Shown: positions 1 through 10,296 of the stretch, one piece after another | How the letters are laid out: the number at the start of each line of letters is the position of its first letter | Position numbering within the stretch: position 1 is the stretch's first letter | IMG/VR virus record: IMGVR_UViG_2548876863_000020 | Location: 1 to 10,296 of that record | Direction: 5' to 3' (one strand) | DNA length: 10,296 bases | Origin: a virus | Lineage: Duplodnaviria; Heunggongvirae; Uroviricota; Caudoviricetes | Notes under the pieces: model-generated | What the model was told of the DNA's origin: nothing | Databases searched by the model: none | The model's input: only the letters and a program-made list of their open reading frames with translations | Position numbers and translations under genes: made by a program

Positions 1-201
1 TTACCCATTGGCGCGGCTTAAGAGCTTATTTTTGAATTCACAATGGTCACGATATAACCATCTTGCTCGCCCGTGGATAACTTTGGCTTTAGGCAGGTCT
101 CCGGACTTAATCCGGTCATAGATGAAGGTTTTACCGAAGCCAGTATCAGCCATGATGAATTTCAAATCAACCAGTGAATCAGGCTGTAGTTCGTGTTGCA
201 T
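1..201 (-). CDS. Excisionase-like / AlpA-family small DNA-binding protein (66 aa)
   Basis: Complete ORF, ATG at 201..199 with GGAGA 8 nt upstream, stop at window base 1. Motif IMADTGFGKTFIYDRIKSGDLPKAKVIHGRARW matches the winged-helix AlpA/Xis pattern (TG..K.TIY..I..G.FP..K.G.R..W). Sits at the distal end of the leftward operon where lambdoid phages carry xis next to int. Confidence 0.6.
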   Translation of the reverse strand: MQHELQPDSLVDLKFIMADTGFGKTFIYDRIKSGDLPKAKVIHGRARWLYRDHCEFKNKLLSRANG

Positions 202-7021: not shown

Positions 7022-7054
7022 AAATAAGAAAATAAAGGCCACCATCAGGCAGCC
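7022..7054 (-). terminator. Putative intrinsic terminator (minus strand) after ral-like gene
   Basis: Minus-strand RNA GGCUGCC-UGAU-GGUGGCC (7 bp including two G-U pairs) followed by UUUAUUUUCUUAUUU; the ral-like stop TGA is in the loop. Confidence 0.45.
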
Positions 7055-7245
7055 TTGTTGTTCTGTTTACCAAGTTCTCTGGCAATCATTGCCGTAGTTC
7101 GTATTGCCCATTTATCGACATATTTCCCATCCTCCATTACAGGAAGCATTTCTTCAGGCTTAACCATGCATTCCGATTGCAGCTTGCATCCATTGCATCG
7201 CTTGAATTGTCCACACCATTGATTTTTATCAATAGTCGTAGTCAT
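7045..7245 (-). CDS. ral: Ral-like restriction-alleviation protein (66 aa), cysteine-rich
   Basis: ATG 7245..7243. Sequence MTTTIDKNQWCGQFKRCNGCKLQSEC... matches my recollection of lambda Ral closely, and it lies downstream of N in the pL operon as ral does in lambda. Not verified by search. Confidence 0.5.
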   Translation of the reverse strand: MTTTIDKNQWCGQFKRCNGCKLQSECMVKPEEMLPVMEDGKYVDKWAIRTTAMIARELGKQNNKAA

Positions 7246-8583: not shown

Positions 8584-9300
8584 TCAAACCAGCCTTAGTT
8601 TTGTCTCAATTGCAACGCCTATAATCTTGCAGTTTCCATTGATTGGCACGAGAGGCCATGCAGGGTTAAGTCCCTTGAGGTATTTATTTCCGCCGTCGAT
8701 TATCAGCTTCTTGAATGTTGCTTCGTTAGAGTCAGAAAGTTTTGCTATGACCAAGCTGCCGTTGATCGCCTCCCTTCCGGTATCGAAAAGAACGAATGTT
8801 CCCTCTGGAATGCTTAACCCAACCGGTGCCGTCATTGAATCACCTTCCACTTTAAGCCAGAACGCATTACCTTGAATATGCGCGTCAGACTCAAGCCAAA
8901 CATCTATGTCTTTAATGGTGTATGGTTCGCATGCTTCACACCACGAGCCAGCCTGGATACTGCTTAACACCGGATACCTCTTTCCTGCTCTGTATTCCCC
9001 TGCATACCTTACGTTGGCATCGCTCTTAAGGCTTTCTGCCTGTTCTGCAACCTTGGCAGCAATTGACTGGCTAAAATCAGCAATTGAGACTTGCAACAGT
9101 CGTGCAAAACCAGATGCAACCTCAACGTTTAGCGCGTTTCTGCCATTAAGATAATGCCCTACCGCTCCTTGGGTGATACCCAGTTCATCAGCGATTGAGT
9201 ATTGGGTTATTCCCAATTCTTTCTTTTTTGACTCATACAAAGCCTTAAGCCGCTTAGCGTCTTCGAGCTGTTCTGTCGTCAGTGATTTTTTATTTTCCAT
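8584..9300 (-). CDS. cI: CI-type prophage repressor (238 aa), HTH plus S24 autopeptidase domain
   Basis: Strong resemblance to lambda CI as recalled (LTTEQLEDAKRLKALYESKKKELG...). Ala-Gly cleavage site in IQAGSW, catalytic Ser in EGDSMTAP, Lys in TFKKLI. Divergent from cro with operators between them. Confidence 0.95.
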   Translation of the reverse strand: MENKKSLTTEQLEDAKRLKALYESKKKELGITQYSIADELGITQGAVGHYLNGRNALNVEVASGFARLLQVSIADFSQSIAAKVAEQAESLKSDANVRYAGEYRAGKRYPVLSSIQAGSWCEACEPYTIKDIDVWLESDAHIQGNAFWLKVEGDSMTAPVGLSIPEGTFVLFDTGREAINGSLVIAKLSDSNEATFKKLIIDGGNKYLKGLNPAWPLVPINGNCKIIGVAIETKLRLV

Positions 9301-9377: not shown

Positions 9378-9406
9378 TTGTTCATGGTTAATAACGGAGA
9401 GTGCAT

Positions 9407-9601
9407 ATGATTCGAATGACACTTGCCGATTACGCCAAAATCCATGGACAGGCTAAAGCAGCCAGTGACTTTGGTGTAATCCAGTGCGCTATCAGCAAGG
9501 CCATTCTGGCAGGCCGTAACATTATGGTTACGGTAAAGCCTGATGGCAGTGTGATTGGAGAGGAAGTTCGTCCTTTCCCAAGCAACAAGAAAAACAAATA
9601 G
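9407..9601 (+). CDS. cro: Cro repressor (64 aa)
   Basis: ATG 9407 with GGAGA 6 nt upstream (track ORF begins at GTG 9401). Resembles lambda Cro as recalled (ITLKDYA..FGQTK.A.DLGV.QSAINKAI.AGR...DGSV..EEV.PFPSNKK). Confidence 0.9.
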
Positions 9602-9607
9602 TAACAC

Positions 9608-9652
9608 CGCTCTTTAACAGTCATGGTCCTCATTCCCGCCGAAATGCGGGAA
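9608..9652 (+). promoter_or_regulatory. nutR (boxA + boxB)
   Basis: CGCTCTTTA at 9608-9616 (boxA consensus), then hairpin TTCCCGC-CGAAAT-GCGGGAA at 9633-9652, identical to the nutL boxB, immediately after the cro stop. Confidence 0.75.
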
Positions 9653-9709: not shown

Positions 9710-9988
9710 ATGCAACTTACAAGTACTCGCAAGAAAGCGAATGCAATTACAAGCAACATCCTGAATCGAATTGCTGTACGTGGTCAGCGAAAGGTTGCCG
9801 ACGCGTTAGGGATTAATGAATCGCAAATTTCGCGATGGAAAGACAGCTTCATCCCAAAAATGGGAATGCTTCTGGCTGTTCTTGAATGGGGTGTTGAAGA
9901 CGAGGAGTTGGCGGAACTGGCTAAGAAAGTAGCCAGAATGCTGACAAAAGAAAAAGCCCCGAAGAACGGCGAATTCTTCGAGGCCTGA
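9710..9988 (+). CDS. cII: CII transcriptional activator (92 aa)
   Basis: ATG 9710 with AAGGAAA upstream. Resembles lambda CII as recalled (KSQISRWK....[14 protein letters not shown]...A.LA..VA..LT). Confidence 0.9.
9944..9980 (-). terminator. oop-like antisense terminator inside the cII 3' end
   Basis: Minus-strand RNA CGAAGAA-UUCGCCG-UUCUUCG (7-bp stem) followed by GGGCUUUUUCUUUUG; position matches the lambda oop RNA terminator. Confidence 0.35.
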
Positions 9989-10022
9989 TGTAGAAAGACT
10001 GGATCAATCCACAGGAGTAATT

Positions 10023-10169
10023 ATGACAAAACAACTCAGTCCTTACCAGGACAAAATTCACAAACACATACTACGTGATCGCTTCCTGTCCAGCTTCAAG
10101 CAGCCTGGTCGATTCCGGGCTGAGTTGGAAAAAGTGAAGCTGATGCAGAAGGAGAAAGGTCATGAGTAA
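10023..10169 (+). CDS. Small hypothetical protein (48 aa), below the ORF-track cutoff
   Basis: ATG 10023 with AGGAG 6 nt upstream; translates [48 protein letters not shown]; stop 10167-10169. Confidence 0.4.
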
Positions 10170-10296
10170 TCTTGCAACCGTAACACATTTAAGGCCTTCA
10201 CAACGGCCTGTGGAGCGTCGTGTGGCAGAAGTTGAAGATGGTTATACTGAACCGCCCCGGGAATCCTGGAGACTAAACTCCCTGAGAAAGAGGTAA
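10162..10296 (+). CDS. Small ORF (44 aa) with an N-terminus reminiscent of replication protein O; ends at the window edge
   Basis: ATG 10162 with AGGAG upstream, overlapping the previous stop by 8 nt. [10 protein letters not shown]...[11 protein letters not shown] parallels lambda O MTNTAKILNF...RNVADLDDGYA (recalled); stop TAA at 10294-10296. Every forward frame has a stop in the last 60 nt. Confidence 0.4.

Follow-up and report, generated by a model that had tools for sequence, protein, structure and literature searches.

The minus-strand hairpin and U-tract at the 3′ end of cII are very probably the terminator (tO) of a prophage oop gene, from which a ~65-nt RNA would be transcribed leftward from the promoter pO, antisense to cII, thereby lowering CII and favouring lysis. 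The site lies near the right end of the analysed window (i.e. the whole stretch of 10,296 nucleotides from a Caudoviricetes virus), and its sequence anatomy, homology, family-wide conservation and covariation are all those of an oop locus. An earlier note, made from the sequence of the window, had claimed an oop-like antisense terminator in the 3′ end of cII. This claim is supported by (i) the Pfam match of cII, (ii) the alignment with phage lambda, (iii) a 33-nt signature sequence, (iv) the annotation of P22-pbi and (v) the RNA detected in phages P22 and BTP1.

Gene context and anatomy of the locus

The window ends on the right in a lambdoid region for immunity and replication, which comprises an S24/HTH repressor gene (8584–9300, minus strand), cro (9401–9601, plus strand), the antisense target cII (9710–9988, plus strand; from the list of open reading frames, with a stop codon at 9986–9988), a DUF2740 gene of 48 codons (10023–10169, plus strand) and an O-like gene that starts at 10162 (plus strand). 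The cII product matches PF05269 (Phage_CII, E = 1.8e-42) and that of the DUF2740 gene matches PF10872 (E = 8.9e-29). The latter gene is a homologue of HK620 hkaW and P22 orf48; it lies between oop and the O-like gene, with pO on the opposite strand inside its first codons. The nearest phage records to the window are phi296/phi367, HK620, HK630 and CP-1639 (97–99% identity), while P22 shares ~82%. A search with the entire window gave no match over its full length in complete E. coli genomes. The O-like replication gene is interrupted by the end of an IS3-family element after 86 nt (10162–10247), and the prophage is therefore probably replication-defective. The last 49 nt of the window (10248–10296) are the left end of this element, annotated as IS629 in CP-1639. 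The stretch has thousands of matching places across E. coli genomes, and in other genomes it runs on into an IS3-family transposase gene.

Several other elements were recognized in the window. Within the 5′ end of cII, GCAA-N6-GCAA (9743–9756) is the complement of the pRE CII box TTGC-N6-TTGC; between cro and cII lie a boxA-like CGCTCTTTA (9608–9616) and a boxB-like hairpin (~9633–9652). These sites agree with the HK620 and HK630 annotations of pRE and nutR. In a related E. coli prophage integrated beside dsdC, the homologue of the first 201 nt (1–201, minus strand) carries a torI annotation (excisionase-like gene, response-regulator inhibitor); the window therefore seems to begin near the left end of the prophage.

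The terminator tO is a stem–loop at 9954–9986 on the minus strand that straddles the cII stop codon and has 14 pairs and a UCGCC loop. Its 5′ arm begins on the A of the stop codon: A9986–U9973 pair with G9967–U9954 around the loop at 9972–9968, with 6 G–C and 3 G–U among the 14 pairs. On the minus strand it reads AGGCCTCGAAGAAT-TCGCC-GTTCTTCGGGGCTT, directly followed by the U-tract TTTCTTTTGT (9944–9953, minus strand). Among 21 terminator-like sites found in a scan of the 10.3-kb window, tO is top-ranked and has the longest stem. For the 70-nt minus-strand stretch that contains it, the folding energy is −27.7 kcal/mol (z = −5.4), a value that 0 of 200 shuffles reached. As plus-strand RNA the hairpin is weaker (−12.6 vs −20.0 kcal/mol on the minus strand), and no T-run follows it on the plus strand. 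The earlier note was thus right to place a minus-strand hairpin with a U-rich run inside the last 45 nt of cII, but the stem has 14 pairs rather than 7. Similarly, its range of 9944–9980 takes in the U-tract and most of the hairpin but omits the outer 6 nt of the 5′ arm, which overlap the stop codon. Two more strong minus-strand terminator-like hairpins with T-tails occur in the leftward early region, at 7035–7056 (9 pairs) and 686–705 (8 pairs).

The putative promoter pO has an extended −10 element, TGTCATAAT (10020–10028, minus strand), which aligns with the −10 of lambda pO. Its hexamer CATAAT runs from 10025 to 10020 with the TG upstream at 10028–10027, and its CAT is complementary to the ATG that starts the DUF2740 gene. 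A −35-like hexamer, TGGTAA (10043–10048, minus strand), lies upstream with a 17-nt spacer and has 3/6 matches to TTGACA. A generic promoter scan does not call the site because this hexamer matches only 3/6 of the consensus. Although the −10 is the sole TGNYATAAT in the window, 0.87 such sites are expected by chance per 10 kb, and the call of a candidate promoter at 10020–10048 therefore rests on position and homology. At exactly the homologous places, the GenBank record of P22-pbi (AF527608) annotates a terminator and a promoter, both leftward, the promoter with the remark "homology with phage lambda". The hexamer of that promoter is TGGTCA, which P22 shares with BTP1 and which matches 4/6 of the −35 consensus, against 3/6 in the window. 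In lambda, pO is inactivated by mutations in its −10 (PMC3985674; PMC3349717). The earlier note had found no clean leftward promoter in 10030–10100. A promoter appears to be present after all: its −10 (10020–10028) was missed because it falls just outside the range searched. Inspection by eye of the pO region revealed no convincing LexA box (CTG-N10-CAG).

The predicted oop RNA is ~63–67 nt long (9947–10012, minus strand), with its 5′ end placed by the lambda alignment and its 3′ end in the U-tract at ~9947. The minus strand aligns with the lambda pO −10 and the first 15 nt of lambda oop RNA. Conserved in this alignment are TGTCATAAT and then (T/G)ACTCCTGT(G/T)GAT(T/A)GATCCAGT. The predicted start, G10012, is the position aligned with lambda +1 (38675), a coordinate that we derived from the statement "94 nt rightward ... 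through base 38769" (PMC5869508) and the lambda sequence; the 5′ end of sRNA-seq reads from P22 aligns with G10009. Our length estimator gives 65 nt for the window allele and 78 nt for lambda, where the true length is 77 nt. The predicted RNA overlaps cII by 42 nt (9947–9988; i.e. the last 13 codons and the stop codon) and is also complementary to the 24-nt spacer between cII and the DUF2740 gene, so that the full complementarity is ~66 nt.

The plus strand at 9998–10030 contains an exact match to a published 33-nt sequence conserved in lambdoid phages, ACTGGATCaATCcACAGGAGTaATTATGaCAAA, which is a known mosaic boundary sequence (PMC3349717). The block takes in the pO −10 together with the 5′ end of oop and, for the gene that follows, the ribosome-binding site and ATG; it is 100% common to HK022, HK97 and Stx phages with other cII alleles. 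The alignment of 23 lambdoid phages by Hayes et al. (2012) lists HK620 and CP-1639 among oop carriers (PMC3349717). CP-1639 is 100% identical to the window over 9930–10060 and HK620 is 98.5% identical. The RNA has been recovered by sRNA-seq from P22 as a 63-nt species (PMC13397905), and the first 30 nt of P22 oop are identical to the window from 10009 to 9980. OOP-BTP1 was annotated from the transcriptome of the Salmonella prophage BTP1 (PMC7067206). Between the predicted start and the end of the U-tract, a single nt separates BTP1 from the window; an RNA that matches the one encoded here at every base but one has thus already been seen experimentally in another phage.

A scan of viral contigs returned only relatives with 98–100% identical cII, which were unusable for covariation analysis but showed a mosaic junction inside the pO spacer (window ~10026–10060). 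The RNA-coding part hardly varies among 64 loci whose cII and oop are nearly identical, while immediately upstream of TTTTGTCATAAT these loci switch to one of at least four unrelated downstream gene modules. The position of this junction agrees with 'sequence 5', a published boundary of lambdoid phages, and with the lambda/P22 hybrid of pO described in PMC3349717.

Conservation and covariation in Enterobacterales

We then compared distinct cII alleles. A scan based on a cII alignment, with one genome per species, yielded 48 distinct cII loci from Erwinia, Rahnella, Yersinia, Serratia, Pantoea, Citrobacter, Enterobacter and other genera of the Enterobacterales. With an RNAfold-based test that required a T-tract (at least 6 T in 8) right behind a hairpin of −9 kcal/mol or lower, a minus-strand hairpin and T-tract were found in the last ~50 nt of cII in 46 of the 48 loci. 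A perfect-stem scanner, which is unable to handle internal mismatches, found 26. By contrast with this minus-strand site, no plus-strand terminator occurs at the cII 3′ end in any of the 48 loci. The background of terminator-like sites is ~0.07 per 75 nt. One of the two cII homologues that lack the terminator hairpin in their own 3′ end is that of Dryocola clanedunensis (801–1094 of locus L095); a hairpin much like that of the window is present on the minus strand ~500 nt further downstream (1590–1642), and the locus may contain a second cII-like gene or a rearrangement. Separately, 14 loci (L132–L148 and others) carry a cII-oop identical to that of lambda on short, low-coverage contigs in assemblies of unrelated bacteria (e.g. 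Pseudomonas, Shewanella, Bradyrhizobium, Neobacillus and Kitasatospora). These are most likely lambda DNA contamination of the assemblies.

A −10 hexamer is found at the place of pO in all 48 loci (CATAAT in 31 and TATAAT in nine), with an upstream TGn in 18. The downstream gene, with its ribosome-binding site and start codon there, could account for part of this conservation. The median distance from the −10 to the T-tract over the 48 loci predicts a 66-nt RNA. Hexamers resembling a −35 are enriched 16–18 nt upstream of the −10 (at least 4/6 matches in 56% of the 48 loci vs 13% in the background), and the DNA upstream of them belongs to several unrelated gene modules. TGGTAA is the commonest −35 (eight of the 48 loci). 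At the right spacing, TTGTAA, TTTACA, TTGAGT and TGGTAA/TGGTCA recur, though the upstream DNA encodes different proteins, and CCTGGTA recurs as Tyr-Gln codons in several small ORFs. Dual coding of a promoter and a protein N-terminus at the −35 is suggested.

When 24 hairpins were aligned plainly with MAFFT, a 1-nt difference in register between the stems kept RNAalifold from finding a consensus structure. We therefore used a covariance model built from eight sequences, by which 35 matches were structurally aligned, and analysed covariation over 32 distinct sequences. At the paired positions, 96.1% of cells are paired, compared with 72.3% in shuffles and at most 52% in slid-partner controls; because the alignment was fitted to the model structure, the paired percentage is inflated, and the per-sequence RNAfold folds are independent of that alignment. 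Changes on both sides (i.e. compensatory changes) are seen in 12 of the 13 stem pairs, and G–U is the commonest pair at three stem positions. The hairpin is stabler as minus-strand RNA in 29 of the 32 sequences (mean −18.2 vs −13.3 kcal/mol, p = 2e-6). The G–U pairs and the greater minus-strand stability indicate that the structure is selected on the leftward transcript, not on cII mRNA. Also, the C-terminus of CII differs between the window and P22 (KEKPQDCGNSFEA in P22) at just the positions where their hairpins differ; the RNA structure was kept as the protein tail changed.

The region was further searched against Rfam 15 at gathering and permissive thresholds, with no useful match and none above the gathering score in the window. 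The oop regions of lambda, P22 and BTP1, used as controls, likewise give no match; Rfam has no oop model and its negative result thus carries no weight.

Proposed function and alternative readings

Expression of this copy and its action on cII are proposed here by analogy with relatives. Sigma-70 RNA polymerase would recognize pO through its extended −10 and weak −35, and start leftward transcription at ~G10012. The transcript would cross the 24-nt spacer between cII and the DUF2740 gene, enter the 3′ end of cII in antisense orientation and stop at the 14-bp hairpin and U-tract (9986 to 9944), giving an RNA of ~65 nt. This RNA would be fully complementary to the rightward pR mRNA (cro-cII-DUF2740-O) over the spacer, the cII stop codon and the 13 codons before it. 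Going by its homologue, lambda oop, RNase III would cut the RNA–mRNA duplex, the cII part of the message would be degraded, and a lower level of CII would mean less activation of pRE and related promoters and a shift to lysis. Convergent transcription from pO may also dampen pR read-through into the replication genes.

The lambda precedent for this mechanism is as follows. As relayed in papers that cite the original work (Krinke and Wulff 1987, 1990; PMC2327240, PMC12197685), OOP pairs with the pR-derived cII-O mRNA and causes RNase III-dependent decay of its cII part. Lower CII favours lytic growth (Krinke and Wulff 1987, 1990; Krinke et al. 1991, again according to citing papers, including PMC2327240, PMC12197685, PMC7067206 and PMC3985674). 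Transcription from lambda pO also lowers pR read-through and affects replication (PMC3985674).

An alternative that we consider unlikely is that the main role lies in this convergent transcription, i.e. that pO tunes replication initiation by reducing pR read-through, as proposed for lambda, and that the RNA is secondary. In its favour, a mutation in the −10 of lambda pO makes phage and plasmid replicate less while pR read-through rises (PMC3985674). Moreover, the part that lambda oop plays during SOS induction is only modest, with a minor effect on CII (PMC2327240), which we count against the antisense reading. However, a role in replication is compatible with an antisense role, which has been shown directly in lambda, and, since an insertion sequence interrupts the O-like gene here, this copy can hardly serve replication control at present. 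The conserved overlap with cII and the compensatory evolution of a hairpin inside coding sequence also point to selection on the RNA and its terminator.

The promoter raises a second alternative: tO may be real while this pO allele is too weak for a meaningful RNA, in which case the hairpin would be a relic or a stop for stray leftward transcription entering cII from the replication region. The 3/6 match of the −35, the failure of the generic promoter scan to call the site, and the TGGTCA hexamer of the P22 and BTP1 alleles whose RNA was detected all fit such a reading. Yet an extended −10 (TGn) usually makes up for a poor −35, the same TGTCATAAT serves in lambda pO, and TGGTAA is itself the commonest −35 among the distinct loci. 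The near-invariance of the RNA-coding part in the 64 close relatives argues for purifying selection, and we regard this second alternative as very unlikely.

The last reading, that the hairpin with its T-run arose by chance or from the coding of cII and does nothing at the RNA level, could appeal to the region being protein-coding and to a T-rich minus strand that mirrors Lys and Glu codons of cII (AAA/GAA), but it is effectively refuted by covariation and positional conservation: the C-terminal residues of CII differ between alleles while double substitutions keep the hairpin, which occupies the same place and strand in 46 of 48 loci, far above the background.

Read as the terminator of an antisense oop RNA, the feature is an already known element, and its allele has been either listed before (CP-1639 and HK620) or detected (BTP1). 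Few antisense RNAs have been known for longer than oop. What matters in practice is annotation: in RefSeq and GenBank the region is recorded with only cII, DUF2740 and O, and the RNA is left out, because Rfam has no oop family. Covariation thus supports oop as an RNA family across Enterobacterales, but for want of an Rfam model the family goes unannotated in genome records; the family-wide covariation reported here would be enough to seed such a model.

The pO-oop unit is intact in a prophage that is probably replication-defective. We see a small chance that it is kept for an effect in trans, by which it would lower the CII of incoming phages with the same allele (i.e. of HK620, Sf6 or BTP1 type). 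If so, the lysis/lysogeny outcome of those phages would be altered, a form of prophage–phage interference.

Comparison with known oop systems

One of the closest known systems is the pO-oop-tO unit of lambda (77 nt, 38675 to 38599). In both, leftward transcription starts, or is predicted to start, just downstream of cII from a promoter with TGTCATAAT as its −10, which overlaps the start codon of the gene that follows; the RNAs have homologous 5′ ends (GTTGATAGATCCAGT in lambda and GTGGATTGATCCAGT in the window); and the RNA, antisense to cII mRNA, ends at an intrinsic terminator within the cII 3′ end. The differences concern (i) length, ~65 nt in the window vs 77 nt in lambda (~12 nt shorter), with ~13 nt absent from the alignment between the 5′ block and the terminator in the window; (ii) the terminator, a 14-bp stem across the cII stop codon in the window vs a ~9–12-bp stem 24–51 nt upstream of the stop codon in lambda; (iii) the overlap with cII, 42 nt vs 55 nt; (iv) the −35, TGGTAA in the window, which is weaker than TTGAGT in lambda; and (v) the next gene, which is the DUF2740 ORF in the window and O in lambda.

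P22 oop, which is antisense to c1, has the same gene order (c1/cII, oop, orf48 and 18/O) and shares with the window the first 30 nt of the RNA, a terminator across the stop codon and the U-tract. It differs in the inner hairpin sequence (GAAGAATTCGCCGTTCTTC in the window vs AAAACTGTTCCCGCAGTCTT in P22), with a corresponding difference in the CII C-terminus, and in the promoter, where P22 has TGGTCA as −35 and TGGCATAAT as −10 context.

The oop loci of BTP1, HK620, CP-1639 and Sf6 have the same hairpin allele as the window. At the RNA level, this group and the window show essentially no difference, and BTP1 has the stronger −35 TGGTCA. In the window, the downstream O-like gene is cut by an IS3-family element.
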